Origin: Octopus sinensis
Taxonomy: Eukaryota
Assembly (NCBI RefSeq): GCF_006345805.1
Contig: NC_043010.1
Coordinates: forward strand, 63,798,001 to 63,862,000
DNA length: 64,000 nt
Direction of reading: 5' to 3'
Shown here: positions 26,168-54,900 of the stretch, in pieces
How the letters are laid out: each line of letters starts with the position of its first letter
How positions within the stretch are numbered: position 1 is the stretch's first letter
Position numbers and translations under genes: made by a program
The notes under the pieces: generated by a model
Database searches by the model: none
Seen by the model: the letters and a program-made list of their open reading frames with translations, nothing else
What the model was told of the DNA's origin: nothing

Positions 26168-26267
26168 NNNNNNNNNNNNNNNNNNNNNNNNNNNNNNNNN
26201 NNNNNNNNNNNNNNNNNNNNNNNNNNNNNNNNNNNNNNNNNNNNNNNNNNNNNNNNNNNNNNNNNNN
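26168..26267. other. Scaffold gap (100 N)
   Basis: Run of N. Confidence 1.
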
Positions 26268-27290
26268 TGCGGGATACAAAGATGAAGCGTTGGAACAAAC
26301 AGTTAAAAGCTGCCGAATATTCACTCTATGGCGAGTCCTAGCCTCGTGTTGCTTAGTTTTTCCTTGGGGTTGGCCAGATTGGAGCAATCTCAAGGTTAAT
26401 CAGCTAAAATTGCGAGGATGATCTGGTTCTTGACTGAGGATAGACAGCTTCGAATGATGACCCATCCTTGTTATTTTTATATTTTATATCGTCTGTCTGG
26501 ATGTTTTGTTGTCCCTTTTTGTATCACCTGGTTGTCCGGATGTTTTGCGTTCTTGTCCCATTTTGTATTATATATATATATGCAAACCTACATACATCAT
26601 GCATGTACATACCTACGTATGTATATACACATGCATATATGGGTACAAGATGTCAAAAGAACATGAACAACATGAGAAACGAGAACATGAATAAACAAAA
26701 ACATGGAAAACGAACTTTTTTTTGAACTACGAAAGAAACAAATAGAGAAACTACACAGGCAACCTAAAGAACAATCCCTTCATCAGTGCCCTCTGTTTTA
26801 TCTACTCCGCATTTCGGACGTTTAGGGCAAGATGCATCTTCATCAAAACAGTCGTTCCTGCAAAGCAAATTAAATAAAATTTGGGATTTGCGGAGGGTTA
26901 ACGTAACAAAAACAGGACAGTAAGAACAAAGCAGCAAAAGCAAACGGTAAGGACTGTTTAGCCATAATGAAGTGAAGGGGTGAACACTGGAGAAACGAGC
27001 TTTGACAGGAGACAGGCAAAAATGTGTGTTGTCTCTTGTAGCGTAAGGAGGAGAAAGCAAGATAGCCGCTGGTCACGTGTGAGCAACGAGAGAGTCAAGG
27101 AGGAAGAGTGAGGGAGAGATAGAGAACGGTGAAGGGGAGGAGGAGAAATAGAGACAGGGTAGGAGAGAAAGAAAGAATAGAGGCAGATAGTAATATAAGT
27201 GCCGCATCAGAATTATTAAGATAAAACTTACTTGGAAATGGATGCATGGCGTTCGATCATATAATATAAAAATATAAATTATATATGTAT

Positions 27291-28349
27291 TGTTACGGAC
27301 CACCTGCCGTCGTCCGGTCGATCAGCGAATGTTCGCCACGGAAACTCGGAGAGAGAGACAACAACAACTACAACAGCAGCCGCAAGAAGAGATACAGAGG
27401 CAATCGAGAGAGACACAAAGAAGGCAATTGGCTCACATTTAACGTACTAGTTTATATGACTATTAATTATTACATCAAATATATATCAGATACATTTAAA
27501 GAGGACACGTCGAATTAAACAACTCAATACATCATACAGGTATACCACAGATCAAAGCATTTAAACTGTCCGGAGACAACAGTTCTGTTTCAAATCACAT
27601 TAACGTTACAGTTCAAAGGACATTAAAAGCATATACAGTTCAATGTTCGTTACACAGTTCTTTTCAACAACTCTGTACACAATGTCTTTACACAGTTCAC
27701 ATTGTTCTTTTTTTACTGTCTCATTTCTTTTACATTTCAATACATCGATTCTTTTTCCTTCTTTTTCTTCACATATCAATACACAATTCACGTACCTTAG
27801 TTCCTACTATAATAGCCAATGTCTCATACTGTACCCCATCTCTCTTAGCACTGCTAAATCCAACTTGCTAACCGCTTGCCTTGAATTCCAAATCCTCACC
27901 CCTAAATCCAACCGCTCGCCTTGACTACCAAATACCGACTGCCCAAAAACCTCTTGCTCTGTCACTACCCGCAATCTCTCTTAGCTCTGTCGCAATCACT
28001 CTCTCTCTCTCTTAGCTCTGCAATACTCTCTGCCTGTCTTCCTCTGCCCCTCATTCTCTCTCACTCTACTGTCATCTCTCATGACAGCTCCCAGATTCCT
28101 TAATCTGTCTTTCTCAGCCCTTCATCCTCTCACTCTACTGTATCTCTCATGACAAGCCCCCAGATTCCTTAATCTGTCTTTTTCGGCACTCAATATTTCT
28201 CTCACTGTCTCTCACACACTGAACTCTAATTCACCTGACGGGGTCGGGAAGTTTCCCCAGAGCTAATTAATCAACCCGCATCTGGCAGAACAATGGATTC
28301 ATTGCCAAATGTAGGTCGCCGTCAACGGTCCTCAAATTGAACCACAACA
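27291..28349. mobile_element. Possible solo LTR (duplicate at 47116-48174)
   Basis: TGTT...AACA termini, ~1.06 kb, embedded in a TA tract; no clean target-site duplication seen. Confidence 0.35.
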
Positions 28350-29279
28350 ATATATATATGTGCATACACACAGACATTTATTGGAATATAATGCGTTCGT
28401 ATATATATATATACACACACAGAGACATTTATTGGAATATAATGCGTTTGTATATATATAGTCACACACATACACACACATTTATTAGAATATAATGCGT
28501 CTGTATATATGATACATATATAATATAAAACCACATTATAAATAGAAATCTCAAATCGGGAGAAAAGATGGAAAAAGAGAAACTTTCTAGCTTAAAGTAA
28601 CATCATGTCTTTCATTGCCATCCACTGCCACTTCGTCTGTTGTTTTACTATTCTCTGCCTACAGCATGACCGAAACCAAGCGTTTTATTTCATAAGATGA
28701 CAATCTGTCCGTCATTCCCAATAGAAACATTATAGTGAAAGGCACTCGTGGTGCGACTTGCAATGTTGCAATTCGATATTGAAAGTCGAAACGTGAGGAG
28801 GGAATGTTGCACTTGTGAGGAGAGAAGGATTTGGTGAGCGGACAGGATTTGGAGGAGGAACAGGCATTGGTTGCATTGCCGCAAGGCAGCGTAAGCCTTG
28901 CTTGTTCGCAGATTGAGGAAGTGTTTTTGTAGAAGATGCATACACGCACGCACACACGCGCGCGGTATATATCGGTTCAAGGGAGATCACTTTCAGATCT
29001 GAGAATAACATTGTTTGGGAATGAGGTTAAAAAAATGTCCAATTACGTCGGTACTTATATACAAAGAGGAACAACTTTTTTGAAAATAATTATCTCTGTT
29101 TCAGCAGAGTTATATTCTCTAACTTCATTTTATGTTCATTTGGCTTTACTGTAGAAATTGTTGCGAAAATCCCTATATTTTTCCACGTTACATATCTGGT
29201 TTAATGAAATTTCGTTGGACAAGGTGGACCATCACCACACCCCACTTCCGTTTTTTTTTAAATATATAATCAAAACCTA

Positions 29280-30265
29280 GGCAGAGGTAAAGAAGACGCA
29301 GAACATTTAAAAAAATTCCTTGCCAAAGAGATGCAGATGAAACCTGATGAATGGGAAACCAAACTGAAAGAAAGATGGTTCTCTATCCTTCAGCAGATTG
29401 AATTTCAAGAACAATACTCCGAGTTGTTAATTTTGTGCCCGTTCTTAATTAGCACACCAGCACAAAATGCTAATGATGAGCGTGTCTTTTCGAGGATGAA
29501 TGTTCAGTGGACTGATGAACGAAATACGTTGGGTGTGGCTACTGTAGAAGCTATCTTACAATGCACATGGAACCTTAACGGTCAATATAAAGCATTTTAT
29601 AGGCATGTGTTAGAAAACAAGGACCTGTTAACAAAAGTGAACTATAACTGAAGGTAAAGGTTCAAGTTTAATTCTCATGCGGTCTGTTAAGAAAATTTTG
29701 CATGTAAGTTTATCAGTTTTGTTTCTTTGCACGTTCTCCATATGAAACACAACTTTTTAGTCTCTTTCTGTGTTTGGATTAAATAATAATTTTCTAATTT
29801 CTTTCCTTTGCATTTTTCTATTGTCTCTATTGAATAAGAATTTTGCAATGATTTCACTTTCTCAGTATTTCTCTTAGATATCTTTATTGCCGGTATTAAA
29901 TAATAATATTCAAATGCTTTCATACAAAAAGATTTTTTATTCATATTGTCTCTATTTGTCATTGAATAAAAAAAATTACAATGATTTCGATCTAACAGAA
30001 TTTTTTTGCCTATTTCTTTATTTCTGTATTAAAGAAATATTTTCAAATTATTTCACTTTAACAGAATTTTTTTAAAGCTTGTATTAAATGATTTTGAAAT
30101 GATTTTACTTTTGTTTTTCTCATAACCCATTAAAATAATTGCTTTATGTTTTTAACCCTTGTCTCTACTTTTATATAATATATTGTTCTGGGTGTGTCGG
30201 CATGCATAAATTTATATATAGAGAGCTATTTAAAAATGTTCCATATTTCTAATCTGGCAACCCTA
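29280..30265 (+). mobile_element. hAT transposon 3' remnant (dimerisation domain and right TIR)
   Basis: ORF 29331-29651 W...YSEL..L..LISTPAQNANDERVFSRMN..WTDERN.L; element ends TCTGGCAACCCTA (reverse complement of TAGGGTTGCCAGA). Confidence 0.8.
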
Positions 30266-30761
30266 GTTAAGTGTGGGGTTTTTGTTGCGTTGCAACTAGA
30301 AAACGATTAGAAAATATCAATTTGTTCATATTGAACAAAAGGGATGTACTCTTTCCAGTGTGTGTCAGTGCTTTGTGTCTATAAATCAGAATGTTGGATC
30401 AGCGCCAGCGTCAGAGCGTCGGATATGTTATGCAGTATTTCATCCGACTCTCTTTGGTCTGTGTTGAATCTCGTCAATATAAACCTTACGTTTCATCTCT
30501 CCAGAGGCGATGAAATAAAATATCAGTCAAATACGTGGTTCCGTATAAGCGATTCCTCCCGCCACAGTTTTCAGATAGTGCGCATATATTAAAGACAGTT
30601 ATGTTATATAATTGCATATAACTGAATGTTACAGTGAATTGATACGTTATCTATTTTATAGATTTAATAAAAGTTAATTATATTTTAATAATATTTATTT
30701 AGGAACACAAAAGTTTGAAAAAAAATCGTTTTTAAAGAGAAGAAAAGGGTCATTTAATTTG

Positions 30762-31155
30762 TACTCTCTTACTCTTCTACTTGTTTCAGTCATTTGACTG
30801 CGATCATGCTGGAGCACCACCTTTAGTCGAATAAATCGACCCAGGACTTATTCTTTGTAAGCCTAGTACTTATTCTATTAGTCACTTTTTGCTGAACCGC
30901 TAAGTTACGGGGACGTTAACACACCAGCATCGGTTATCGAGCGGTGGTGGGAGGACAAACACACACAAACAACAAACTCATACATATACGACGGGCTTCT
31001 TTCAGTTTCCGTCTACCAAATCCCCTCACAAGGCTTTGATAAGCCCAAGGCTAAAGTAGAAGACACTTGCCCAAGGTGCCACACTGTGGGACTGAACCCA
31101 GAACCATGTGGTTGGGAAGCAGGCTTTTTGCCACACAACCACTCCTGCACCTATG
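30762..31155 (-). mobile_element. tRNA-derived SINE upstream of copy B
   Basis: Reverse complement of the family at 10738. Confidence 0.75.
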
Positions 31156-31497
31156 TAATTTAGAAATTCACTCAGAAACTAAAAGTTTTAGCTTCTCTAA
31201 AATCGATTAAACTGAAAGTCGGAATGCATGGACATAATTATGTTTATTTGAATTAACTTTAATACACGTTTATACTTTGGGCTTAACGACAGTTCTTGCG
31301 TTATAACACCGAGCTGAGCACAAGTTGTATGATACGGAAATGAAATTTATACGCGAAAGTGACCCACATTACAGCATTTTCGAGCGTCAACACATTCAGT
31401 GTGCATGCGCAGACGTCGCTGCATAAAGAAGTTGAACGGCAAACTTTTTTAGTGTATCCACGTAGAAAACTGACTGTCTAATCATACTCAGAGCACG

Positions 31498-32154
31498 ATG
31501 GCTAACAAACAGCAGCTCAGGAACTCAATTAAAATTCAGAAATGTCAGGTGGTACTTGTGGACGGGCTTGATGGTGTGACAGTAACAAAGATTGTTGATC
31601 ATTTTTTATCTCAATTAGTTATCAATGACGAGGAAAAGAATGCAATTCAAGCAAAAGAGACTGAACAAGAAAAAGCTCGGAAATTACTAGACGTTATTCG
31701 CCCCAAAGTGAAAAGCCAGGATAAACAGAATAAGTCAGAATTATTCAATGGATTTGTGGAATGTCTAAGAGAACATAACCCGAGTTTAGCAACAGCCGTG
31801 GAAATTGCTGATGACAGTGTGCCGAATGACGAACTTGACATAGATAATATCCTTGAACGTGTTAAAAATATAGATTTGAATGAGAAAATGTTAAATCGTA
31901 TTTTGATGCGTATGGGCTCTGGATGGGAATCTGTTGCTTCTGAATTAGGTATAGAGAGCATAAAAATTGATAATGTTAGGCAAGACAACCCATACTGCAC
32001 ACATAACCAGAAGTTTGAGGCATTTAATTCCTGGAGAAAAAAACAAGCCCATGGGCGTGGTGCATTAAAAAAACTTATAAAAGCCATCTATTACTGTTCT
32101 GTTAATTGCAATGTAAACATGAATAAAATACTTGAATGTATTGAAGACCCTTAA
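31498..32154 (+). CDS. CARD + death domain adaptor, copy B, 218 aa
   Basis: Colinear without gaps with copy A (about 75% amino-acid identity by hand count); intact ORF. Confidence 0.9.
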   Translation: MANKQQLRNSIKIQKCQVVLVDGLDGVTVTKIVDHFLSQLVINDEEKNAIQAKETEQEKARKLLDVIRPKVKSQDKQNKSELFNGFVECLREHNPSLATAVEIADDSVPNDELDIDNILERVKNIDLNEKMLNRILMRMGSGWESVASELGIESIKIDNVRQDNPYCTHNQKFEAFNSWRKKQAHGRGALKKLIKAIYYCSVNCNVNMNKILECIEDP

Positions 32155-34425
32155 AAAGAAAAGAAGGAAGAATAACGCGCAGTTTTTACAATGTTGTATG
32201 TTAATATATTAAAAAAAATACAGTTTTTCCGATACACTTTTTGATATGGACATAAAGAATCGACACTTCAAAAATGAAATTATCCTACACTAAACGGCAT
32301 AATTCTTGCGTTGTGGACTGATATTAAACATCGACATGCGAAAAGTGAAATAATGCATTATCAACAGACATTATATTTCAATTATTGAATCCTTTTCAAC
32401 GGACAGATTACTTTCGACTTTCACTTTGGGAAGTTGCCGTCTTAAAGTAACATCATGTCAAACGCGGAAGTATGCGACTCTTTCCTTCATTATTTTTATT
32501 GTCGACTAAAACTCTTCACTTTTTGATGTTTACATAAAATTTTTCTATGATAAAAATATATATTATTTTGCTTTAGTATCAACCGCTATAATTTCATTTA
32601 ATTCTATACATATTTTATAACCCTAAATTTAATAGAAATGAAGACTGTCTTATTTAGAGGTAACTCTCTAAGGAAACAACGAACTTCAACGCAATGATAT
32701 AACATTTTGGAACTTATTCTGGGCGATCCATCGGTATAGGTACACACGTGACTTTGTTTAGATTTCTGAAGATAAGAGAAACCCTTTTCTCCCACCACTA
32801 ACCCTAACACAAACTCTAAAAAAAAAACAACACTTTCTTGAAATGTATCCGGTATTTATACCGAAGTTATGCTATTATTCTGTATTGTTGATAATAAACT
32901 TGCTGAAATGGTAAGGATGTAGTTGGATGAATCTGAATTTTCAACCAAAATGAATGAAGGTTTACTTTGTGTGTTTGTAGTGTATGATAAAGATAGAAAG
33001 GCGTGTTACGTGATGGATATTAATGATAAGGTGGTTCTGCAACATTAAAACCAACCTTTCAGCAATGAATTTCCTTTAGAATACAGACATGTATATATGA
33101 TGGATTTAACTGTGCTGGATAGCTACAGAAGGCGCCCTATCGATTTAGATTTTCCCTATACCTTTCTTAAAACGCACATCTTTAATGGCATTTTCTAGAA
33201 ATACGTATTCAATAGTGTTGATTGCGAATAAATTTATTGTTAAAAAAATTGTTAAGACCATTGTAAGATATAACGTATCTCTTGAAAATTTCGTTAAACG
33301 TATGATTTTAACAAAGTTCGGTGGAAAGCGCAAAAGAAAACGAAACAACTTGTTTTACATCCACCAGAAAAACCCCTTTATATTTAATTTTTAATTATTC
33401 TTTTTAATGAAAACCTCCGTTTTCGGGTACAGAGTATACGAATCTGGAAAAAAGAAAAAAAAGTGTCCAAAATTGGCATTTCAGAATTTCAGTTCCCAGC
33501 AATTTTTCCATTAATCACATTTTTCAGAATTAAAAAAACTTTTAAATTATTATTTTCTTTACTTTTTTTTTACCAAATGTGTGAAAAAATACGGAGATTA
33601 TGATTCTCAAAAAAATTTTTGTAAAATTTCAAAAAAAAACCCCAAATATTACCCCCGTCCCCCTCGCAGTTTACAGCATAAACTAGAAGTTTTGAAACCC
33701 CTTTTGTCATTGCACATGCGTTGACTGCTACTTGAAAAGAGATACTTTGGAAGTTGTGCGGTGATGGGGGGGGGGGCGATATGCGGAAAAGGTTTTTAAA
33801 ATTCTTAAAATTTTATTTTCGGTTTTAAAATGCGGACGGCCCGAATCTGTTGTTCGTTTCCCTTTACCATTTCGAAAGAACTTTTTAAATATTTCGAAAT
33901 CAAAATTGGTTGCACATGGTGGATATGTAACCCATCCGCTTCCTGTACATTAAATTTGCCTTCAATCAGTCTATCCACATGCTAGAAATAACAGCCAGTT
34001 CTCACACAAACTCTTATTCGCACATATTTTTTAATAAAAGTTTTTGCATATACGCCTAGGAGTCGATTGGGGATGAGCTTCGACAAAACTGCCATACTGG
34101 CCGGTTTTGTTTCTTGGCGATAAAATTTCAGAGAAATTTTCTGCATTAAAAAAAGGTATTATAAAAAAGTTAAAATAATAACTTATTGCCAGGTACTTGG
34201 GCATCTAGCCTAAGAAATGCATTGCCTATCTTGTAAAACTATACTGAGCCAAATTTAGAAAGTGAAGTGGGCCGCAAGATCTCACTCAGTGCGTAGGTTT
34301 CTGTGCAACAAGAAAAGTTGTAAGAAGTCGGCGAAAAACCAAATACCACTTCGGAAAGGAACTTGGTTTGGTCATAGCAATTTGTCTGGCAAAATGTTAA
34401 AATAAAGTGTTCATTTTTCATTTGT

Positions 34426-35206
34426 TCTTAAAGAGTTGTTAAAGGAAACCCTCATTGCATGCTAGAAGCAGGTATGGCTGAGTGCGTCCAGGACTATGAG
34501 AGATTCTCACCTGAAGATATTCAGCATGAGACTGTCAGCAATTCAGTGAAACTGGGAAAGGTTTTGATGACATCACACAAGAAGAGGTCAACGATATGTT
34601 GGATTTAACGAAGTCTGCCAGCAAAGTGGAGGCAGAAGCGCCAGATCCAGAGGAAGAGGAGGATGTGGTGGGCCTGGCAATTGAACATCTATCTGACCTT
34701 TTAAGGACAGCAAAGGAATTGCAAGGGAAGGCTGAAACAGGGGATCCCTATATGGTTCGGTCTCTCCAATTTAAAAAAGCTGTCGATGTGGCTATGCAGA
34801 CATATAAAACACTCCTCACCATCTTGAAGAAACAACGACACCAACTTCCCATTACAACGTTCCTCAAACTCACCAAGAAAACCTTGCATGAAGATACGAT
34901 ATCCCCTAAAACATCTCAAGAAGGGACGTCACCAGAAGAGCTTTAAATGTTTGCTGTGCAGTAATTACCTTTATTATTTTCATCGTCGTCTTAAATCAGT
35001 ATCATTCATTATTGGTGAGTAAACATACATTTTACATCATTCTTAATTAAATCATTATTAAATATTATGTGCAGGTGTGTGTGTAATATTTTAAGTTATA
35101 TTTTGACATTTATAGGCATTTTATAGACCACATCCGATATTCACGCATTTTCAGTATTTGTGGGAGCTCGGGGAATGTAACAAGCATGAACACCGGGGGA
35201 TGACTG
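34426..35206 (+). mobile_element. Tigger/pogo-like transposon 3' portion with TIR
   Basis: Near-identical to 63728-64000; ORF 34596-34946 resembles a transposase C-terminus; ends CGGGGGATGACTG followed by TA. Confidence 0.75.
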
Positions 35207-36514
35207 TAATAATTGTGATTTATTTTACATTAAATTAGATTGTTTTGTTTTTTTGCTTTTTTTTTTATTTACAATTGAATAATCAAAAATCAACTGAGCT
35301 CTTTGATGAGTTTAGCCAAATCAACAGGTGTTGTGCCTTTAGACACACCTGATATCTTAATTGATTTTGCATCTAAATATTATCTTGTTAATTTTGATAT
35401 GATTTCCACATATCACCTATAATGGTGGGCCCTGGATGAAAATGTTTACCAATTACTGAGAGTAGTTGAGATTCTATTTACAAACTCAGTTAATAATCCA
35501 CTACCTGTTACAAGTCAAACCATTCGTAAACCCATTGCTCTACAATAATACTTGCATTCTGGAAACAGATGTACATCAATTTTGGCCAGAACATTTTCAG
35601 CATTTCATTGAATTGGAATGGCCATCAAAGTTTCTAGTGTTAGCTTTGTAGCCAATATCTAATTCACGATATGTCTAGTTTGAGTTAATATTTACTTTTA
35701 CTCTTGGCCACCAAAACAAAAACAAAAAAAAAAGTGTATTAAATGAATATGGAAACAAACATTTGCGCCAGCGAATCGGAGGTTGGGAGAGGGCTTTCTG
35801 AAAAATTCACATGATCCGACTTTTTCCCTCATAACTTTTAGGAAAATGGACAGATTTTAATGAAATTTTATATAAATACCTTTCCAATGGCATAGTATAT
35901 GATTATAATGAAATTTGTGGGTGAAAGTTTTTTCAAAGGGGTGGGCAGAAGACTTTCAAAGAGAAAGAAATTCATAAACCATTTTTTTGCTTGAGTGTAA
36001 TGGAAAAAAGTTTGAAAAATAATTTTTTAGATTCCTTTATAAATTTATATATACACGGTGCCCCAGCATGGCCACAGCTCAAGAGCTGAAACTGGAAAAA
36101 ACAAAAAACAAAAAACAAAAAAAAAAAAAAAACACACAGTGTATCACACTAGTATTATTTGGGGCCAGTGATGACAGATCAAAGATATATATACAAGGGA
36201 CTGAACATACATTTTAATGCAGCACTCTTTTTAAATCATTGCTATAGTAACCATACACATTGTTTATTTAAACAGGATTATTTTGAAGGTTGTGAGCCAA
36301 CATAGCCTCATTGAAATTAGGTTACTTCCTGGTCTCTCTCTCGTTATTGTAGTTTAGATTACTGTATCTAGTAGTAATACAAGCTAAAGTTTTCAAAACC
36401 TGGATTGTTTCTACTCTCTGCTCAATCTCACATTCGTGCTATGCACATATAAGAAGCAAGGAAGATTGTTTTGTATGTATTTTTGGAAAAAAACTGCGTC
36501 CAGTAGTTATCTCG

Positions 36515-36830
36515 ATGGTTTTGTTGTGTTGTTTATCGCAGGGTTATGAAAGCCCTAAGATTCCACCCAAAAGCCCTACACCTTCGAAGGTTTCTGGCAG
36601 AGAACCTAAGCACCAGAAAGAGGTTAGGATGCTCCCTGAGAAGGTACAACAGCTAGATATGCTCTGGGAAAGTAAAAGTTATGCAGCAGTAGGCCACTAT
36701 TATGGGGTTAATGAAAGTACCATATGCTACAGAAAGAAGATCGAGGTAGCGATCAGGACTATCGTAGCAGTAAGTTTCTGTGAAAGTGCCCAAAGATAAC
36801 GATAGAGAGAAATAAGCAGTTCGTGAGGAT
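36515..36830 (+). mobile_element. Tigger-like transposase N-terminal HTH remnant
   Basis: EKVQQLDML..KSYAAVGHYYGVNESTI; copies at ~60800 and ~62525. Confidence 0.75.
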
Positions 36831-37171
36831 TAAATCCTTTAAAATATTTATAATAAATATCATTTCGTAGTGTAACATGGCAACAAAAAAAAACAGCAAA
36901 AAACATATACAGGGTTATTTGAAGTTAACACGGGCTGTGATTGGTGCAATGGAAAGAGACGATGAATCGCAGCTTTCTATTTTGTAATCTGGCCTGTGAC
37001 TGGTGCTTTGACCGATGCTCAGATCCGCAGCACATTCCGCTGGTCCCCCCCTCTCCCTCTCTCTCGCGGCCATTTGGCTCCAGGCTTTCTCGGTGAGTGA
37101 TTTACTGTACTACTTTACGCTGTGCTGTGTGTGATCTTTGTTGTTGTTTCTTTGCGTTTTCATCTTCTGTA

Positions 37172-37460
37172 ATGGCTCCCAAGCATGCTGCTTCTTCCAA
37201 GGCTGGTACGGAGCCTGAACGCAAACGAAGAATAATGACGATCGCTGAGAAGGTGAAACTTCTGGATGTGTTGAAGATGGACGAGGCTAACATCAGGAAG
37301 ACGGCTGCCATCACCTTTTAATAAGTCGGCGAAGAGAGTGGTTACGGCTCGTAATAAAACTATCATCCGTTTGGAAGCTGCTTTGGCCGTATGGATAGCC
37401 AAGTGCCGAAAGAAAAACATAGCCTTGGATACGAACATCATTAAAACAAAAGCAAGGAGC
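37172..37460 (+). mobile_element. Second Tigger-like transposase fragment, internally deleted
   Basis: MAPK...RKRRIMTIAEKVKLLDVLK, then a CENP-B-like LEAALAVWIAKCRKKNIALDTNIIKTKA after a frameshift. Confidence 0.75.
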
Positions 37461-38225
37461 TTTCCTTCATTATTTTTATTGTCGACTAAAACCCTTCACT
37501 TTTTGATATTTACATAAAATTTTTCTATGATAAAAATATATATTATTTTGCTTTAGTATCAACCGCTATAATTTCATTTAATTCTATACATTTAAAATAT
37601 ATTTTATAACCCTAAATTTAATAGAAATGAAGACTGTCGTTGTTTGGTAATGGAAGATCTGATTATGAAAAGAAGCTTTTAAAAAAAACCCACTTTAATT
37701 TCACATGAATTACTTTGTCATATTACTATGGGAAATTACTTTGAAAAAAATCTTTGCAGAAAGATGAGTCAAATGATTGCATTGTTATCGCAGTTTGGAG
37801 AGGTTTGGCTGTTATTTCTAGCATGTGGATAGCCTGGTTGAAAATGTCCCTTGTTTAAGAAACATATTGGGTTTATTTACATTTCTGAAGCATCCAACTA
37901 GGCCATCATGATGCTGGTTATTAGAGAAGTTGTGGGCCGAATCTGATGGTAGAAAAGCTAGGACTGGAGAAAGAGAGATACGAGTTAACTTTCCTAGAAT
38001 GTTAGCATCCAACTAGGCCATTTCGAAGCAAATGTACAATATTAGAAAAATTGGGGAAGTAAACCCCCGAAAAGAACAAAATTTGAAATTGAAGAGTTTT
38101 GAGATTCACCCAATCAGGAAACAGTTCTTTTCTGCTTATATGGAAAAATATAAAACGTGCAGGCACATGCGTAGTTGTGTAGTTAAGAAATTCAACCGCC
38201 AACATTTTACAAACAGACACGGAGC

Positions 38226-38780
38226 ATGATGGCTGCCTTACAGCAAATGTCGAACGCAAAGATAATTCAGCGATATTATGAGGTTCTTGTGAATAGTTTA
38301 GATAGTGTGGGTATAAAAAAGATTATTGATCGTCTTTTGAGTCATTCATTAATTTTGATCGAGAACAAGAATGAGATTCAAACAGAAAAAACCCCCGAAG
38401 ATAAATCTCGGAAATTACTCGATATCATTTTAAATCAAGTGAGAACCGAGGACAATGAGAATAAGTCGGAATTTTTTGACGAATTCATGAAAGTTCTAAA
38501 TGAAGTCGACAAAAATTTGGCATCATCCATGAAGAAGGAAGCTGAGGAGAAAGCTAAGAAGGAAGCTGAGGAGAAAGCTAAGAAGGAAGCTGAGGAGAAA
38601 GCTAAGAAGGAAGCTGAGGAGAAAGCTAAGAAAGAAGCTGAGGAGAAAGCTAAGAAGGAAGCTGAGGAGAAAGCTAAGAAGGAAGCTGAGGAGAAAGCTA
38701 AGAAGGAAGCTGAGGAGAAAGCTAAGAAAGAAGCTGAAGAGAAAGCTGAGGAGGAAGAAACACTCGCGGCCCTAATGTGA
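38226..38780 (+). CDS. CARD-only paralog with a (KKEAEEKA)9 charged tail, 184 aa (copy D)
   Basis: First ~102 aa align to the family CARD (LVNSLD..IIDRLLS..IQTEKTPEDKSRKLLD..F.EFMKVL); shares upstream and downstream flanks with the other copies. Confidence 0.75.
   Translation: MMAALQQMSNAKIIQRYYEVLVNSLDSVGIKKIIDRLLSHSLILIENKNEIQTEKTPEDKSRKLLDIILNQVRTEDNENKSEFFDEFMKVLNEVDKNLASSMKKEAEEKAKKEAEEKAKKEAEEKAKKEAEEKAKKEAEEKAKKEAEEKAKKEAEEKAKKEAEEKAKKEAEEKAEEEETLAALM
38532..38747 (+). repeat. In-frame 24 bp minisatellite, 9 units
   Basis: AAGAAGGAAGCTGAGGAGAAAGCT; units 5 and 9 carry the AAGAAAGAA variant. Confidence 0.95.
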
Positions 38781-39705: not shown

Positions 39706-39920
39706 AAGGCGGCGCGCTGACAGAAACGTTAGCAGGCCGGGCGAAATGCTTAGCAGTATTTCATCTGCCGTTACGTTCTGAGTTCAATTTCTGCCGAGGT
39801 CGACTTTGCTTTTCATCCTTTCGGGGTCGATAAATCAAGCACCAGTTGTGTACTGGGGTTGATCTAATCGATTTGTTCCTTTCCCTAAACTTTCGGGCCT
39901 TATGCCTAGAGTAGAAAAGA
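39706..39920 (+). mobile_element. SINE
   Basis: GGCGGCGCGCTGACAGAAACGTTAGCA...GTTCTGAGTTCAA..GCCGAGGTCGACTTTG; same family as 8005 and 60170. Confidence 0.75.
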
Positions 39921-41658: not shown

Positions 41659-42430
41659 TCAAGTGTAATGTAGGTTGTATGTGGATATGTACGGCATTAT
41701 TTTTGGGGAATGTGTGTTGTTGTGTTGAACTTTTCTCAAGGTTTCTATGTCAATTTGTGTAGCACCTCTGATTCCATGCTCTATGAGTTGAACTGGGTAG
41801 TGTCTGTCAATTAGGGTGTTTTTGAGTTCTTGCAGTCTAAAGTCTCTGGTGTTTTGTTCTGACACTATTGTGAATATCCTTCTTGCAAGGTTGAAGGGGA
41901 TGTTTGTTCTGGTGTGTATTGGGTGGCATGAATTAAATAGTAGATATTGTTTAGCGTCTGTGGTTTCGTAAAATATGTCCATTTCTTCTTTTAGGTTTAT
42001 CCAAGAATGGAAGCTCCTTTTGGTTGTACTCCATTGCGAACTGTATGTTTGGGTTGACGCTGTTCAATAGTCTTTTGAATTTCAGGAGTTTATCTGTGTT
42101 TTTTTTTTTATTCCAGAGTATGAAACAGTCGTCTGGGAATATTTTCCAATTCACTTTTATGTATTGGGAAAGGGGGTTTCCAAAGGTAGATAAAGATTCC
42201 TGGTATATTATTACTTCCAAGTAGCCCATTGTTAGGTTCGCAATGACTGGTGCTGCCCTAGTACCCATAGCAATTCCGGATTTTTGTCGGTAAAACGTAT
42301 TGTCAAACATGAAGCGGTTATTTCGGAGGATGAATTCAACCGATTTAGTTATGAATTCTTTACTGATCCTTTTTGGTATTTCTTCCGGAAATTGGTCCAA
42401 CCAGAACTGAATTGCCTCTAGCCCATAATT
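41659..42430 (-). mobile_element. Penelope-like element reverse transcriptase fragment
   Basis: F.FDNTFYRQKSGIAMGTRAAPVIANL.M, DDCF, LPFLD, then YLLFNSCHP..NIPFNLARRI. Confidence 0.85.
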
Positions 42431-42804
42431 CAGTTGTGGCTGGACAATTCAGACCTGGCAATTCAGTAACTATGTTACTATACGCAAAATTTGTCACATT
42501 TTTCTAACATAACGATTTAAATATATTCTTTAACCATATAACACAAGCCTTCAGTAGCTTTTTCACTCTTTTTTGTCTTTTATACATCCAGCCACGTGCT
42601 TTCACATACCAACTCTCTCACATCTATATCTATTTATATATATATATATATACACACACACAAAATGGGACAAGAACTGAAAACATTATCGCAAATAGTT
42701 ACGTGGTAGCAGGGCGTTCTAGAACTAGCAGCCAAATACATCGAATGCAATCGAAAAAAAAAACTATTTCATACTGAGGTTACGAACGGGTCTTTTATAA
42801 AATA

Positions 42805-44776: not shown

Positions 44777-45167
44777 GGATCTTTTCGGTTTGACCGGCAG
44801 TTTTTTCTAGCGGTGTCATATGAAATTGTCACCCATAATTATGACCCTAGTATCGATCTATTGCATTTCAATCTGTTTTAGGGTTAGGGGGAAGGGTATC
44901 TCTTTTCTTTAGAAATGTAAATAAACCCAATCTGTTTCTTAAGCGAGGGACATATACGGCACATAATGTTTTCATCTCAATAGACGTCATTGATTGGTTG
45001 AAATTGCAGAAAAACAACAACAAATATCTTACAAGCTATAGAATTTTCTCAATAAAGCCAAGAGAAAAAGATGTTTTATAAACACATTCTATCAGTATAC
45101 GAAGTTTAAAAGAGTTTAGTTACGTGGAAATTATTTTAAAAAACTGCCGGTCAAACCGAAAAGATCC
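44777..45167. mobile_element. MITE with ~30 bp TIRs and an 8 bp target-site duplication
   Basis: GGATCTTTTCGGTTTGACCGGCAGTTTTTT / AAAAAACTGCCGGTCAAACCGAAAAGATCC, flanked on both sides by TAAACTTG. Confidence 0.9.
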
Positions 45168-45348
45168 TAAACTTGTATTTTAGCGCCAAAAGAAAATATT
45201 CACGGAACAACTCTAGTTGATTTCCGTTCAAAATATACCTGCTACAAAGCTTTCTACAGATGTAGTTGTGTAGTTAGGAAATTCACCAGCAAACATTTCC
45301 GTGTTTACCCACATACAACACTGAATGTCAAAGCATACTTAGAACACG

Positions 45349-45463
45349 ATGTCTGGAATACAGCAGTTGTTGAATACAACTATAATTCAGCGAAGTTATA
45401 GGGAACTTGTGGAGAGTTTTGAAAGTGTGACTATACAAAGAATCATCGATTACCTTTTGATTC
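45349..45463 (+). pseudogene. 5' stub of another CARD-family gene (copy E), truncated by a retroelement
   Basis: Translates as MSGIQQLLNTTIIQRSYRELVESFESVTIQRIIDYLLI, homologous to the family N-termini, with the family upstream sequence; homology stops at TGTAGTG (45464). Confidence 0.85.
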
Positions 45464-46135
45464 TGTAGTGTAGAGAAGGACCGGAACTAAGGTAGTACGC
45501 ATGTCCTGTCGGAAGTGGGGACTGTGGGTCCCACCAGAATGGCCGCAGTGGGCATGCGGTGTTGGCGAAATGTAAGCAGTAAGTTGGCAGTGGATAGCGT
45601 ACGAGAGCAGACCTGTTAGATGGTACGGCGACAGACAGAGTACGCGGACATTGTGAGTGACCCTTCCAGATCGATAGGTAAGACTACCGCAATTCTCCCT
45701 CTGCTTCTGTCTTTTCCTCCTTCACATCACAAGCTATTTCGGCTCAAAAGGAAAAAAAAAAATGATTGGTATGGTTCCTGTTTCGAACGAGACGTTTAGG
45801 CTATTTTGCGGCGAGGGAGACACCGCCGCTTGGTTGATAAAAATTAAGTTGGTGGCAAGACACCACGGTATATATGACCTACCGAGTTTCATTCCATTGT
45901 ACCTCGATGGATCGGCGTTGGCACTATACCTGGAAATAGAGGAGAAGGACCAGTTAAGCGAAGAAAAAATAGATGTTCGGCTGATAGAGGCTTTTACGGA
46001 AGGGTCATTTATGGCATATGGTTCACTGGGGAAAGCAAAGTGGACGAGTGAAGAGGTCGACGTGTTTGCCACGTCAGGAGATTGGCCAGACTTGCGGGAT
46101 ACAAAGATGAAGCGTTGGAACAAACAGTTAAAAGC
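45464..46135 (+). mobile_element. Gypsy-like LTR retrotransposon 5' part (probable LTR and gag fragment)
   Basis: Starts with TG; ORF 45762 F.GEGD..AWL.K.KLVA....LPSFIPLYLDG.ALALYLE...VDVFA, continuing RRLARLAG after a frameshift, resembles Gypsy gag. Confidence 0.7.
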
Positions 46136-49104
46136 TGCCGAATATTCACTCTATGGCGAGTCCTAGCCTCGTGTTGCTTAGTTTTTCCTTGGGGTTGGCC
46201 AGATTGGAGCAATCTCAAGGTTAATCAGCTAAAATTGCGAGGATGATCTGGTTCTTGACTGAGGATAGACAGCTTCGAATGATGACCCATCCTTGTTATT
46301 TTTATATTTTATATCGTCTGTCTGGATGTTTTGTTGTCCCTTTTTGTATCACCTGGTTGTCCGGATGTTTTGCGTTCTTGTCCCATTTTGTATTATATAT
46401 ATATATGCAAACCTACATACATCATGCATGTACATACCTACGTATGTATATACACATGCATATATGGGTACAAGATGTCAAAAGAACATGAACAACATGA
46501 GAAACGAGAACATGAATAAACAAAAACATGGAAAACGAACTTTTTTTTGAACTACGAAAGAAACAAATAGAGAAACTACACAGGCAACCTAAAGAACAAT
46601 CCCTTCATCAGTGCCCTCTGTTTTATCTACTCCGCATTTCGGACGTTTAGGGCAAGATGCATCTTCATCAAAACAGTCGTTCCTGCAAAGCAAATTAAAT
46701 AAAATTTGGGATTTGCGGAGGGTTAACGTAACAAAAACAGGACAGTAAGAACAAAGCAGCAAAAGCAAACGGTAAGGACTGTTTAGCCATAATGAAGTGA
46801 AGGGGTGAACACTGGAGAAACGAGCTTTGACAGGAGACAGGCAAAAATGTGTGTTGTCTCTTGTAGCGTAAGGAGGAGAAAGCAAGATAGCCGCTGGTCA
46901 CGTGTGAGCAACGAGAGAGTCAAGGAGGAAGAGTGAGGGAGAGATAGAGAACGGTGAAGGGGAGGAGGAGAAATAGAGACAGGGTAGGAGAGAAAGAAAG
47001 AATAGAGGCAGATAGTAATATAAGTGCCGCATCAGAATTATTAAGATAAAACTTACTTGGAAATGGATGCATGGCGTTCGATCATATAATATAAAAATAT
47101 AAATTATATATGTATTGTTACGGACCACCTGCCGTCGTCCGGTCGATCAGCGAATGTTCGCCACGGAAACTCGGAGAGAGAGACAACAACAACTACAACA
47201 GCAGCCGCAAGAAGAGATACAGAGGCAATCGAGAGAGACACAAAGAAGGCAATTGGCTCACATTTAACGTACTAGTTTATATGACTATTAATTATTACAT
47301 CAAATATATATCAGATACATTTAAAGAGGACACGTCGAATTAAACAACTCAATACATCATACAGGTATACCACAGATCAAAGCATTTAAACTGTCCGGAG
47401 ACAACAGTTCTGTTTCAAATCACATTAACGTTACAGTTCAAAGGACATTAAAAGCATATACAGTTCAATGTTCGTTACACAGTTCTTTTCAACAACTCTG
47501 TACACAATGTCTTTACACAGTTCACATTGTTCTTTTTTTACTGTCTCATTTCTTTTACATTTCAATACATCGATTCTTTTTCCTTCTTTTTCTTCACATA
47601 TCAATACACAATTCACGTACCTTAGTTCCTACTATAATAGCCAATGTCTCATACTGTACCCCATCTCTCTTAGCACTGCTAAATCCAACTTGCTAACCGC
47701 TTGCCTTGAATTCCAAATCCTCACCCCTAAATCCAACCGCTCGCCTTGACTACCAAATACCGACTGCCCAAAAACCTCTTGCTCTGTCACTACCCGCAAT
47801 CTCTCTTAGCTCTGTCGCAATCACTCTCTCTCTCTCTTAGCTCTGCAATACTCTCTGCCTGTCTTCCTCTGCCCCTCATTCTCTCTCACTCTACTGTCAT
47901 CTCTCATGACAGCTCCCAGATTCCTTAATCTGTCTTTCTCAGCCCTTCATCCTCTCACTCTACTGTATCTCTCATGACAAGCCCCCAGATTCCTTAATCT
48001 GTCTTTTTCGGCACTCAATATTTCTCTCACTGTCTCTCACACACTGAACTCTAATTCACCTGACGGGGTCGGGAAGTTTCCCCAGAGCTAATTAATCAAC
48101 CCGCATCTGGCAGAACAATGGATTCATTGCCAAATGTAGGTCGCCGTCAACGGTCCTCAAATTGAACCACAACAATATATATATGTGCATACACACAGAC
48201 ATTTATTGGAATATAATGCGTTCGTATATATATATATACACACACAGAGACATTTATTGGAATATAATGCGTTTGTATATATATAGTCACACACATACAC
48301 ACACATTTATTAGAATATAATGCGTCTGTATATATGATACATATATAATATAAAACCACATTATAAATAGAAATCTCAAATCGGGAGAAAAGATGGAAAA
48401 AGAGAAACTTTCTAGCTTAAAGTAACATCATGTCTTTCATTGCCATCCACTGCCACTTCGTCTGTTGTTTTACTATTCTCTGCCTACAGCATGACCGAAA
48501 CCAAGCGTTTTATTTCATAAGATGACAATCTGTCCGTCATTCCCAATAGAAACATTATAGTGAAAGGCACTCGTGGTGCGACTTGCAATGTTGCAATTCG
48601 ATATTGAAAGTCGAAACGTGAGGAGGGAATGTTGCACTTGTGAGGAGAGAAGGATTTGGTGAGCGGACAGGATTTGGAGGAGGAACAGGCATTGGTTGCA
48701 TTGCCGCAAGGCAGCGTAAGCCTTGCTTGTTCGCAGATTGAGGAAGTGTTTTTGTAGAAGATGCATACACGCACGCACACACGCGCGCGGTATATATCGG
48801 TTCAAGGGAGATCACTTTCAGATCTGAGAATAACATTGTTTGGGAATGAGGTTAAAAAAATGTCCAATTACGTCGGTACTTATATACAAAGAGGAACAAC
48901 TTTTTTGAAAATAATTATCTCTGTTTCAGCAGAGTTATATTCTCTAACTTCATTTTATGTTCATTTGGCTTTACTGTAGAAATTGTTGCGAAAATCCCTA
49001 TATTTTTCCACGTTACATATCTGGTTTAATGAAATTTCGTTGGACAAGGTGGACCATCACCACACCCCACTTCCGTTTTTTTTTAAATATATAATCAAAA
49101 CCTA

Positions 49105-50090
49105 GGCAGAGGTAAAGAAGACGCAGAACATTTAAAAAAATTCCTTGCCAAAGAGATGCAGATGAAACCTGATGAATGGGAAACCAAACTGAAAGAAAGA
49201 TGGTTCTCTATCCTTCAGCAGATTGAATTTCAAGAACAATACTCCGAGTTGTTAATTTTGTGCCCGTTCTTAATTAGCACACCAGCACAAAATGCTAATG
49301 ATGAGCGTGTCTTTTCGAGGATGAATGTTCAGTGGACTGATGAACGAAATACGTTGGGTGTGGCTACTGTAGAAGCTATCTTACAATGCACATGGAACCT
49401 TAACGGTCAATATAAAGCATTTTATAGGCATGTGTTAGAAAACAAGGACCTGTTAACAAAAGTGAACTATAACTGAAGGTAAAGGTTCAAGTTTAATTCT
49501 CATGCGGTCTGTTAAGAAAATTTTGCATGTAAGTTTATCAGTTTTGTTTCTTTGCACGTTCTCCATATGAAACACAACTTTTTAGTCTCTTTCTGTGTTT
49601 GGATTAAATAATAATTTTCTAATTTCTTTCCTTTGCATTTTTCTATTGTCTCTATTGAATAAGAATTTTGCAATGATTTCACTTTCTCAGTATTTCTCTT
49701 AGATATCTTTATTGCCGGTATTAAATAATAATATTCAAATGCTTTCATACAAAAAGATTTTTTATTCATATTGTCTCTATTTGTCATTGAATAAAAAAAA
49801 TTACAATGATTTCGATCTAACAGAATTTTTTTGCCTATTTCTTTATTTCTGTATTAAAGAAATATTTTCAAATTATTTCACTTTAACAGAATTTTTTTAA
49901 AGCTTGTATTAAATGATTTTGAAATGATTTTACTTTTGTTTTTCTCATAACCCATTAAAATAATTGCTTTATGTTTTTAACCCTTGTCTCTACTTTTATA
50001 TAATATATTGTTCTGGGTGTGTCGGCATGCATAAATTTATATATAGAGAGCTATTTAAAAATGTTCCATATTTCTAATCTGGCAACCCTA
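49105..50090 (+). mobile_element. hAT 3' remnant (duplicate)
   Basis: Duplicate of 29280-30265. Confidence 0.8.
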
Positions 50091-51322
50091 GTTAAGTGTG
50101 GGGTTTTTGTTGCGTTGCAACTAGAAAACGATTAGAAAATATCAATTTGTTCATATTGAACAAAAGGGATGTACTCTTTCCAGTGTGTGTCAGTGCTTTG
50201 TGTCTATAAATCAGAATGTTGGATCAGCGCCAGCGTCAGAGCGTCGGATATGTTATGCAGTATTTCATCCGACTCTCTTTGGTCTGTGTTGAATCTCGTC
50301 AATATAAACCTTACGTTTCATCTCTCCAGAGGCGATGAAATAAAATATCAGTCAAATACGAGGTTCCGTATAAGCGATTCCTCCCGCCACAGTTTTCAGA
50401 TAGTGCGCATATATTAAAGACAGTTATGTTATATAATTGCATATAACTGAATGTTACAGTGAATTGATACGTTATCTATCTTATAGATTTAATAAAAGTT
50501 AATTATATTTTAATAATATTTATTTAGGAACACAAAAGTTTGAAAAAAAATCGTTTTTAAAGAGAAGAAAAGGGTCATTTAATTTGTACTCTCTTACTCT
50601 TCTACTTGTTTCAGTCATTTGACTGCGATCATGCTGGAGCACCACCTTTAGTCGAATAAATCGACCCAGGACTTATTCTTTGTAAGCCTAGTACTTATTC
50701 TATTAGTCACTTTTTGCTGAACCGCTAAGTTACGGGGACGTTAACACACCAGCATCGGTTATCGAGCGGTGGTGGGGGGACAAACACACACAAACAACAA
50801 ACTCATACATATACGACGGGCTTCTTTCAGTTTCCGTCTACCAAATCCCCTCACAAGGCTTTGATAAGCCCAAGGCTAAAGTAGAAGACACTTGCCCAAG
50901 GTGCCACACTGTGGGACTGAACCCAGAACCATGTGGTTGGGAAGCAGGCTTTTTGCCACACAACCACTCCTGCACCTATGTAATTTAGAAATTCACTCAG
51001 AAACTAAAAGTTTTAGCTTCTCTAAAATCGATTAAACTGAAAGTCGGAATGCATGAACATAATTATGTTTATTTGAATTAACTTTAATACACGTTTATAC
51101 TTTGGGCTTAACGACAGTTCTTGCGTTATAACTCCGAGCTGAGCACAAGTTGTATGATATGGAAATGAAATTTATACGTGAAATTGACCCACATTACAGC
51201 ATTTTCGAGCGTCACCACATTCAGTGTGCATGCGCAGACGTCGCTGCATAAAGAAGTTGAACGGCAAATTTTTTTAGTGTATCCACGTAGAAAACTGACT
51301 GTCTAATCATACTCAGAGCACG

Positions 51323-51978
51323 ATGGCTAACAAACAGCAGCTCAGGAACTCAATTAAAATTAAACGATGTCGTAATGATCTTGTGCATGGGCTTGATGAT
51401 GTGACTATAAAAAACATGGTTGATCATTTTTTATCTCAATCGTTTATCAATGACGAGGAAAAGAATGGAATTCAAGTAGAAAAGACTCCACAAGACAAAG
51501 CTCGGAACTTACACGACGTTATTCGCCGCAAAGTGGAAAGCCAGGATAAACAGAATAAGTCAAAAATATTCGATGGATTTGTGAAATGTCTAAGAGAACA
51601 TAACCCGAGTTTAGCATTAACCGTGGAAAATGCTGATGACAGTGTGCCGAATGACGAACTTGACATAGATAATATCCTTGAACGTGTTAAAAATATAGAT
51701 TTGAATGAGAAAATGTTAAATCGTATTTTGATGCGTATGGGCTCTGGATGGGAATCTGTTGCTTCTGAATTAGGTATAGAGAGCATAAAAATTGATAATG
51801 TTAGGCAAACAACCCACACAGCACACATAACCAGAAGTTTGAGGCATTTAATTCCTGGAGAAAAAAACAAGCCCATGGGCGTGGTGCATTAACAAAACTT
51901 ATAAAAGCCATCAATTACTGTTCTGTTAATTGCAATGTAAACATGAATAAAATACTTGAATGTATTATGGACCCTTAA
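51323..51978 (+). pseudogene. CARD + DD copy C with a -1 frameshift in the death domain (189 aa as assembled)
   Basis: One base missing near 51803-51810; the original frame continues NPHSTHNQKF...KILECIMDP* to 51978. Confidence 0.8.
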
Positions 51979-54900
51979 AAAGAAAAGAAGGAAGAATAAC
52001 GCGCAGTTTTTACAATGTTGTATGTTAATATATAAAAAAAAATACAGTTTCTCCGATACACTTTTTGATATGGACATAAAGAATCGACACTTCAAAAATG
52101 AAATTATCCTACACTAAACGGCATAATTCTTACGTTGTGGACTGATATTAAACATCGACATGCGAAAAGCGAAATAATGCATTATTAACAGACATTATAT
52201 TTCAATTATTGAATCCTTTTCAACGGACAGATTACTTTCGACTTTCACTTTGGAAAGTTGCCGTCTTAAAGTAACATCATGTCAAACGCGGAAGTATGCG
52301 ACTCTTTCCTTCATTATTTTTATTGTCGACTAAAACCCTTCACTTTTTGATATTTACATAAAATTTTTCTATGATAAAAATATATATTTTTTGCTTTAGT
52401 ATCAACCGCTATAATTTCATTTAATTCTATACATATAAGATATATATTTTATAACCCTAAATTTAATAGAAATGAAGACTGTCTTATTTGGAGGTAACTC
52501 TCTAAGGAAACAACGAACTTCAACGCAATGATATAACATTTTGGAACTTATTCTGGGCGATCCTTCGGTATAGGTACACACGTGACTTTGTTTAGATTTC
52601 TGAAGATAAGAGAAACCCTTTTCTCCCACCACTAACCCTAACACAAACTCTAAAAAAAAAACAACACTTTCTTGAAATGTATCCGGTATTTATACCGAAG
52701 TTATGCTATTATTCTGTATTGTTGATAATAAACTTGCTGAAATGGTAAGGATGTAGTTGGATGAATCTGAATTTTCAACCAAAATGAATGAAGGTTTACT
52801 TTGTGTGTTTGTAGTGTATGATAAAGATAGAAAGGCGTGTTACGTGATGGATATTAATGATAAGGTGGTTCTGCAACATTAAAACCAACCTTTCAGCAAT
52901 GAATTTCCTTTAGAATACAGACATGTATATATGATGGATTTAACTGTGCTGGATAGCTACAGATTTTGATTTTCCCTATACCTTTCTTAAAACGCACATC
53001 TTTAATGGCATTTTCTAGAAATACGTGTTCAATAGTGTTGATTGCGAATAAATTTATTGTTAAAAAAATTGTTAAGACCATTGTAAGATATAACGTATCT
53101 CTTGAAAATTTCGTTAAACGTATGATTTTAACAAAGTTTGGTGGAAAGCGCAAATGATTCTCCCAAGAAAACGAAACAACTTGTTTTTCATCCGCAAAAA
53201 AAAAAACCCCTTTATATTTAATTTTTAATTATTCTTTTTAATGAAAACCTCCGTTTTCGGGTACAGAGTTTACGAATCTAGAAAAAAAAAAAAAGTGGCC
53301 CAAATCGGCATTTCAGAATTTCAGTTCCCAGCAATTTTTCAATAAGTCACTTTTTTTCAGAATTAAAGAATTGTTTAAATATTATTTTATTTACTTTTAT
53401 CTTTTACCAAATGTGTGGGAAAATACGGAGATTATGATTCTGAAAAATTTTTTTGTAAAATAAAAAAAAAAAAAAATGAAAACATTACCCCCTTCCCCTC
53501 GCAGTTACGGCATAAACTAGAAGTTTTGAAACCCCTTTTGTCATTGCACGTGCGTTGACTGCTACTTGAAAAGTGAAACTTTGGAAGTTGAGCTGTGATG
53601 GGGTGGGGGTGATATTAAGAAAAGGTCTTTGGAATTCTTAAAATTTTATTTTCGGTTTTAAAATGCGGACGGCCCGAATCTGTTGTTCGTTTCCCTTTAC
53701 CATTTCGAAATCAAAATTGGGCGCACATGGCTGATACGTAACCCATCCGCTTCCTGTACATTAAATTTGCCTTCAATCAGTCTATCCACATGCTAGAAAT
53801 AACAGCCAGTTCTCACACAAACTCTTATTCGCACATATTTTTTAATAAAAGTTTTTGCATATACGCCTAGGAGTCGATTGGGGATGAGCTTCGACAAAAC
53901 TGCCATACTGGCCGGTTTTGTTTCTTGGCGATAAAATTTCAGAGAAATTTTCTGCGTTAAAAAAAGGTATTATAAAAAAGTTAAAATAATACCTTATTGC
54001 CAGGTACTTGGGCATCTAGCCTAAGAAATGCATTGCCTATCTTATAAAACTATACTGAGCCAAATTTAGAAAGTGAAGCGGGCCGCCAAATCTCACTCAG
54101 TGCATAGGTTTCTGTGCAACAAGAAAAGTTGTAAGAAGTCGGCGAAAAACCAAATACCACTTCGGAAAGGAACTTGGTTTGGTCATAGCAATTTGTCTGG
54201 CAAAATGTTAAAATAAAGTGTTCATTTTTCATTTGTTCTGTTTTACAACTAAAAGTGTTGGAAATTTCCAAAGTGTCTTTCTTTTTTCTACAAAGTTTGA
54301 AAGGGCTTTTACAAAATAAAATAAAATAAAATAAAAGGAGTACCGAAATAGCAGCCTTGTCTCCAACAAACTCTCTTCACACACACATGTGTATGTGATG
54401 CACATACAAGAAGGATTCGTTGAAAATATCAAAGTAATTTCATGTTACATACCGTTGGAATTTACGGGGAATAAACCTCGGAATTATGTTTTCAACATTG
54501 TATTCCGGGACCCTTGTATTCCATTTCGAAATTTCGCACGATGACAGAAAATGAAACAATATGAGCGTCCATTTACAATACCTGAAAGTGAAATCTGTTG
54601 ACCCAGCAAAATAAAATTTAAAAAATGCTTCCCCGGAGGGTTAGAGAGAGGATTTTCATAGAGAAAGAAATACATAAATTATTTTTTTGCTTGAGTGTAA
54701 TGGAAATAGTTTTGAAAAAATAATTTTTTAGTTTCATTTATTTTTCGTTTGAGTAATAGAAAAATATTTTAGAAAAGATCCCAACCGTAGAGATGTGCTA
54801 AAAAACCCCAGCTAAATCGCCCTTAATATTTTTACCCTAGTGAAACCATATTCAACACCGTATGTATGAATTTATTTCTCTCACCATGCTACATGGCATG

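Follow-up and report, generated by a model that had tools for sequence, protein, structure and literature searches.

A 64,000-nucleotide stretch of the Octopus sinensis genome (RefSeq assembly GCF_006345805.1, contig NC_043010.1, forward-strand positions 63,798,001 to 63,862,000; hereafter the window, with positions counted from its first letter) was investigated in this study, and its AT-rich, repeat-laden animal DNA was observed to harbor a tandem cluster of CRADD-like genes with uninterrupted coding frames, which join a CARD to a death domain (DD). One member of this cluster, copy C, is a B-type unit in its upstream sequence, DD and downstream sequence that carries an A-type CARD, the two types being named after the intact genes A and B of the same window. 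With moderate confidence, we attribute this frameshifted hybrid to gene conversion that followed a probably real tandem duplication in the cluster. The conversion origin of its CARD holds whether B and C are paralogs or haplotypes.

Chimeric structure of copy C

The following features of the window carry this finding.

5463 to 6119, forward strand: gene A, intact CARD-DD gene, one open reading frame of 218 aa (Pfam CARD 1e-12, Death 1e-6)
31498 to 32154, forward strand: gene B, intact CARD-DD gene, 218 aa (Pfam CARD 1.3e-12, Death 1.6e-8)
51323 to 51978, forward strand: gene C, A-type CARD and B-type DD, frameshifted, with an open reading frame that ends at 51892 (189 aa)
5099 to 5179, 30498 to 30578 and 50323 to 50403, forward strand: 81-bp 5' block common to A, B and C (95-96% identity)
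51803 to 51826, forward strand: 24-nt exact match to A (5944-5967), spanning the C frameshift, one base out of register with B

Both types are also found in O. vulgaris as two separate 218-aa genes, namely P0002 (A-type, with 10/218 residues different from A) and P0001 (B-type, with 9 residues different from B, 96% identical), and gene B is B-type in both of its domains. Across the CARD (codons 1-105), B and C differ at 42/315 nucleotides and 30/105 residues, and in the remainder of the gene at 8/341 nucleotides and 5 residues; the first-pass annotation had reported heavy divergence of the first ~105 codons, and the peptides that it quoted were correct. At these 30 CARD positions, B agrees with P0001 in 27, and C agrees with P0002 in 22 and with window A alone in one, the other seven residues being private to C. 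The CARD of C is 12 residues away from P0002 and 16 residues (22/315 nt) away from window A, and its DD is 3 residues from P0001 and 27 from P0002, the A-type and B-type DDs being 29-31 residues apart. Painting of the 61 sites that differ between P0002 and P0001 revealed that A-type states predominate in C as far as codon 100 and B-type states from codon 113 on, with a switch between codons 103 and 113 (maximum chi-square p 5e-5) and 35 runs against 73.6 expected (runs test p 1e-5). Trees of six sequences each were built for the two domains: the DD tree united B, C and P0001 at 100/99 and rejected A+P0002+C (approximately unbiased test, p-AU 7e-4), and the CARD tree united B with P0001 at 100/100 and rejected B+C (p-AU 8e-5). 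Upstream, B and C carry ~640 bp after the 81-bp block, a segment which A does not have. It is because of the painting, the trees and this shared segment that C is described here as a B-type unit with an A-type CARD.

Almost all of the changed B-C CARD codons are non-synonymous (30/31; omega 2.1, not significant), which favors the view of hyperpolymorphic alleles kept by balancing selection, with CARD differences that are new mutations and owe nothing to exchange between paralogs. This view is largely refuted by the matches themselves, as 23/30 C residues are found in A or P0002 and 27/30 B residues in P0001, and we regard its probability as close to negligible; accordingly, the hyperpolymorphic alleles that the first-pass annotation had offered as new CARD variation are not supported. 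From the sequence comparisons, the CARD dip reads as mostly imported paralog sequence and not as new allelic variation.

Two points weigh against a transfer from the A lineage. The CARD tree permits a clade of B, P0001 and C (p-AU 0.13) and leaves C with A and P0002 unresolved, and the exact CARD donor is not in view, given the distance of C from window A and its seven private residues. The same tree result and the same private residues favor a different history, in which B and C go back to an old duplication, their CARDs having been selected apart and all the rest homogenised by conversion, with the CARD of C being ancestral and owing nothing to A; an identical B-C profile would be expected from it. 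We consider this history very unlikely, as the CARD of C is only 12 residues from P0002 against the 29-31 between DD types, I82 and L99 of C are shared solely with P0002 among the six sequences compared, and the 24-nt A tract in the DD of C points to transfer from A to C. Slimmer still is the chance that assembly or polishing created the CARD of C by mixing in reads of A or of an A-type paralog missing from the assembly. Abundant repeats, a nearby gap and the 97-98% identity of the A, B and C flanks would all invite such an error, but C differs from the assembled A at the 22/315 CARD nucleotides given above, has private changes and displays not one switch but several small alternating tracts.

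Small tracts were noticed in both A and C. Window A harbors B-type residues at positions 53, 54, 58, 82 and 84, at each of which C is like P0002. Within its DD, C in turn has the A-type residues 166 and 198. Relative to B, C has a 1-nt deletion at codon 163, and across this frameshift the match to A extends over 24 nt, against 8 nt for B after the break. At the same site, an AGGCAA motif stands one base out of register between A and B; an A tract entering at this motif would give exactly the 1-nt deletion of C, so that the frameshift would be an out-of-register scar, and the 24-nt match, read in this manner, argues against a sequencing error. Under the conversion reading, ectopic conversion would move tracts of tens to ~300 nt among A, B and C both ways.

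Extent and divergence profile of the B/C duplication

The duplication and its ends are described by the following features.

26268 to 30535, forward strand: stem of copy B, 100% identical to 46093-50360
46093 to 50360, forward strand: stem of copy C, the pair of the B stem
33319 to 33926 in B and 53139 to 53737 in C, no strand: non-coding divergence peak, 48 substitutions in 608 nt
20319 to 26152, no strand: degenerate TA-rich microsatellite of 5.8 kb (TRF), abutting the gap
26168 to 26267, no strand: scaffold gap of 100 N, the sole N run in the window
34423 to 35206, forward strand: probable deletion junction at 34428/34429 (junction sequences, TCT microhomology), then the 3' part of a DDE transposon
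54240 to 63729, no strand: 9.5 kb after C, missing after B, including segments (55708-55961) with homology to the A and E 3' flanks

Self-BLAST of the window aligned copy B (26268-34428) with copy C (46093-54239) at 97.5% identity over 8,191 columns, which bears out the near-identical duplication of ~8 kb proposed by the first-pass annotation. In a global alignment, the stems of the two copies display 0 differences over 4,268 bp, 8 homopolymers and 6 dinucleotide runs included, and ten substitutions follow in the 960 bp between the stem end and the ATG of B; the annotation had seen only a handful of substitutions in the ~5 kb upstream, and the count is indeed 10, all of them substitutions and none an indel, over the 5,230 bp that lead up to that ATG. 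Identity along the alignment dips at the coding region, a point that it had proposed to check, as 42/315 CARD nucleotides are different against 19/1,645 (1.2%) in the quiet 3' flank (Fisher p 7e-21). The claim that the differences are concentrated in the CARD coding region holds as far as this dip is concerned, but not as a full description, because a second peak at 33319-33926 is non-coding and reaches 7.9% substitutions (p 1e-14) with 12 indels. For this block, no donor was found in the window, where only two short matches of 82-83% near fragment F were detected, and no clear terminal inverted repeat was noticed in the peak; a dispersed repeat may have donated it by conversion.

The left end of the duplication is defined by the scaffold gap, which ends one base before copy B, as had been stated; no breakpoint is visible there and the true left end is hidden. 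The microsatellite that abuts the gap shows a strong G skew. Past the right end, similarity between the two sides returns (34423-34699 against 63724-64000, 97.5%), and the B-side 3' segment matches 63730-64000 at 265/271 nucleotides, with 6 differences. The flank of B runs through the TCT microhomology into the middle of the DDE transposon, which has a DDE_1 Pfam match at 63425-63739 and which we take to be Tigger/pogo-like; no partner for the transposon end motif was found in the window. Copy B appears to be without an equivalent of the 9.5 kb at 54240-63729, through a probable deletion, and because similarity then resumes, the repeated unit is probably larger than 8 kb, with both of its ends outside the view of this study.

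Paralogs or haplotypes

We are fairly confident that B and C are paralogs. There is no gap between them, the 11.7 kb that separates them holds E, F and G, and further duplicates of 93-96% identity are found nearby in the cluster. On the opposite side of the scale, B starts exactly at the gap, the stem has no differences against ~49 expected at the flank rate, and the proteins found for O. vulgaris include a single one with a B-type DD, in a search that a frameshifted C would escape. The identical 4.3-kb stem would mean either that the copies were homogenised over a long stretch very recently, or that the contig tip was assembled from reads common to both of them.

The same facts feed the explanation that B and C are two alleles assembled in tandem, that is, a false heterotype duplication, C then being a broken B allele with an A-type CARD. 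Besides the start of B at the first base past the gap and the identity of the 4,268-bp stem with its microsatellites, it draws on a quiet-flank divergence of only 1.2%, which could be allelic, and on the link from B to E, which crosses a transposon-like repeat nest with copies of 93-97% identity after C. False duplications are tied to high heterozygosity and gaps (PMC9516828; this and the other papers cited by PMC number are represented here by excerpts), and as in such cases we see near-identical neighbours on one scaffold beside a gap. However, the typical position of the gap according to that excerpt is between the copies, and here it precedes the first copy and does not separate them. Moreover, a misjoin must cross ~1.5 kb of repeats that are only 93-97% alike, and the two alleles would have to differ by a 9.5-kb deletion and by the 7.9% block. 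We regard the allelic explanation as unlikely, though by no means trivial, and the paralog reading is retained below.

Several observations were made on the repeats around the copies. Transposon-like nests lie at 35585-37459 and 60284-64000, with one block of ~830 bp found three times at 93-97% identity, and a second abrupt junction, into remnant H, is seen at 37460. Fragment G is truncated at 45463 by an insertion (45464-46166) that holds a 162-codon frame without a Pfam family, which is presumably gag-like, and the contig of copy B begins inside a duplicate of this frame. The open frame at 45678-46166 across position 46093 was considered as proof of continuity and set aside as weak, as it extends only ~24 codons past the boundary and has no Pfam family.

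Divergence of A and B and evidence for selection

Genes A and B differ at 73/656 coding against 20/701 flank nucleotides (p 1e-9); by region, the divergence is 10.2% for the CARD and 12.0% for the DD, compared with 2.1% and 3.3% for the flanks. Among the changed codons, 54/58 alter the residue, and only 2/50 fourfold sites are different. Since the DD differs as much as the CARD and the non-coding block dips as well, the CARD focus of the B-C differences is mostly a matter of tract position; the tandem duplication with conversion over the coding region suggested by the first-pass annotation is supported, with the A lineage as donor type.

The omega of A and B is 2.0 (p 0.06), and 2.4-2.5 (p 0.03-0.04) under mosaic-age models, in which the divergence time is free to vary along the gene. 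Site models M1a/M2a (p 6e-4 for A-B; 3e-6 for B-C) were tried as proof of selection and rejected, because a neutral mosaic-age null fits almost equally. Between species, A and B together differ from their O. vulgaris counterparts at 19/436 residues, 16/19 of them in the CARD (p 0.001), a bias that arises partly through conversion. By comparison, D is identical to P0005, a presumed O. vulgaris record, over 245/245 residues (p 3e-4 against the 19/436 of A and B). The changed CARD residues include positions aligned to R444, E445 and N449 of the RIP2 CARD interface, as described in an excerpt of PMC6255760.

Four results count against a selective reading of these patterns. In the one-ratio tests, 8/9 were not significant and the pairs are not independent; the A-B site-model fit is matched by the neutral mosaic-age null (lnL -1148.38 vs -1148.35); the changed CARD residues are not enriched at the RIP2 interface in an ungapped alignment (7/17 vs 14/39, p 0.47); and divergence dips are possible without coding selection, because the non-coding block at 33319-33926 dips too. 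Divergent selection on A and B is therefore likely but unproven, as the one-ratio tests are mostly null, the pairs are non-independent and the site signal is absorbed by the mosaic null. Under this reading, divergent selection would have built, and would keep, the A-type and B-type differences in both domains with the flanks staying alike, and the cluster proteins appear to diverge faster than the surrounding DNA. Taken as a whole, the A/B pattern fits the 'peak of divergence' model, which concerns duplicates that undergo conversion, as far as it is set out in the excerpt of PMC3924837.

Composition of the cluster

In total, the cluster comprises D, A and B as intact CARD-DD genes, E as a CARD-only gene, C, F and G as broken copies, and H as an orphan 3' flank. 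The members that have not yet been listed are as follows.

3819 to 4556, reverse strand: gene D, intact divergent CARD-DD paralog, 245 aa (open reading frame; CARD-aligned Met at 4502)
38226 to 38780, forward strand: gene E, CARD-only, 184 aa (Pfam CARD; TRF period 24), the window-encoded P0009
40882 to 41050, forward strand: fragment F, frameshifted partial copy of the E CARD (94.7% to E)
45349 to 45463, forward strand: fragment G, E-like CARD gene cut short after its first ~38 codons (tblastn; 72% nt to E)
37460 to 37647, forward strand: remnant H, orphan 3' flank of another A/B/C-type copy (94% to B, 96% to C, 91% to A)

Gene D is 40% identical to A across both domains, and its Pfam CARD match is weak (E 7e-4, below the cut-off). 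D and A stand head-to-head with ~900 bp between them, and a bidirectional promoter may serve both. In gene E, 9.4 copies of a 24-nt unit (KKEAEEKA) come after the CARD and before the stop. Just past this stop, a remnant reading MNLVRILMH resembles the start of a DD, and because of it gene E appears to have lost its DD. Elsewhere in the window, decayed remnants of reverse transcriptase and integrase (RVT_1, Integrase_H2C2) were noticed at 13580-16460 and 41659-42448 on the reverse strand and at 1602-1952 on the forward strand, and a 112-bp unit is present at 18211-18548 in three perfect copies (100% identical).

Domains, structure and relatives

CRADD, also named RAIDD, is the CARD and death-domain adaptor of caspase-2 in the PIDDosome. 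Like it, the 218-aa cluster proteins have an N-terminal CARD and a C-terminal DD; in A and B both domains score above the Pfam cut-off, and there is no catalytic domain. The AlphaFold model of B displays two helical bundles, with a mean pLDDT of 82.5. Among solved structures, the best DD match is the RAIDD DD (2o71, E 9e-6, profile), 2o71 and 2of5 being the top DD profile matches, and 2o71 is also the best DD fold match (TMt 0.86), though no fold match reached E 0.001. Different from RAIDD, the CARD matches NLRC4, RIPK2 and ICEBERG first (E 1e-6 to 1e-4, scores too weak for ranking), no RAIDD CARD chain was found among 48 matches at E 0.1 or better, and the octopus cluster is multi-copy, mosaic and fast-changing. 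The family profile recovered 181 representatives at E 0.001 or better, of which 6 were at 1e-30; all named homologs are from Octopus, and P0001-P0003 carry the name CRADD in their sources. A longer fused relative was absent from 7,999 scored candidates, which is weak evidence. From their architecture and from what is established for CRADD (PMC11463336), A and B are predicted to be adaptors that connect a DD partner with a CARD caspase. As bipartite adaptors, each would pair its own DD partners with its own CARD partners, namely CARD caspases; exchanging the CARD would then change which output follows a given input, and gene E would serve as a CARD-only decoy.

The product of C would be either a 189-aa protein with half a DD or a spliced form as in the O. 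sinensis model P0004, in which residues 1-137 of C are joined to another DD and which would bypass the frameshift. A GT after the first base of codon 138 (51734-51736) fits the P0004 junction. P0004 was nevertheless rejected as independent support for C, as it is not independent of the window; its tail is absent from the window, and P0010 is not its source (37%). A CRADD-annotated protein was detected in the skin mucus of O. vulgaris (PMC11431876), the paralog not being stated in the excerpt.

Comparison with known systems and biological meaning

Duplicates that undergo gene conversion and keep selected peaks of divergence are known from opsins, MHC and plant R genes, and the present cluster shares with them a low flank divergence, coding peaks and pseudogenes among functional copies, features set out in the excerpt of PMC3924837. 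It differs from them in the unit exchanged, which is here almost the whole interaction domain of an intracellular adaptor and not the ligand-binding site of a receptor. Tandem duplication, conversion and pseudogenisation are together a familiar process, and the copy with the swapped domain is a broken one.

In primates, CARD-only genes are products of the history of the caspase-1 cluster. Gene E resembles ICEBERG and its kin, being CARD-only through local duplication, and ICEBERG is one of the CARDs matched by the family profile; E differs from them in that it derives from a CARD-DD adaptor, not from a caspase, and has a repeat-expanded tail.

Among the literature matches listed, no description of an octopus CARD-DD cluster was found, most subscription papers being outside the coverage. 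In the excerpts available, lophotrochozoan CRADD is presented as conserved, with dN/dS 0.91, and as the only activator of the CARD caspases of molluscs (PMC11463336), and Cradd is said in a squid paper to be absent from the octopus genome (PMC9389742). The cluster runs against both of these statements on mollusc and cephalopod CRADD, as far as the excerpts go, with three CARD-DD genes that are intact, one gene that has a CARD only and a further three copies that are broken, against the single conserved CRADD of PMC11463336.

As a tentative and rather doubtful extension, CRADD may have turned combinatorial in octopus, with A-type and B-type CARDs and DDs of different partner specificities being reshuffled by ongoing conversion under selection. 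By analogy with MHC or plant R-gene clusters, such a system would include CARD-only decoys and pseudogene templates, and it would probably be driven by pathogens; C may then be a converted B allele that became fixed beside B by unequal crossing-over. If the exchange of sequence and the faster protein change in the cluster are confirmed, it would provide a natural domain-swap series (A/A, B/B, A/B) for the evolution of death-fold specificity and would be a candidate locus of host-pathogen conflict in cephalopods.

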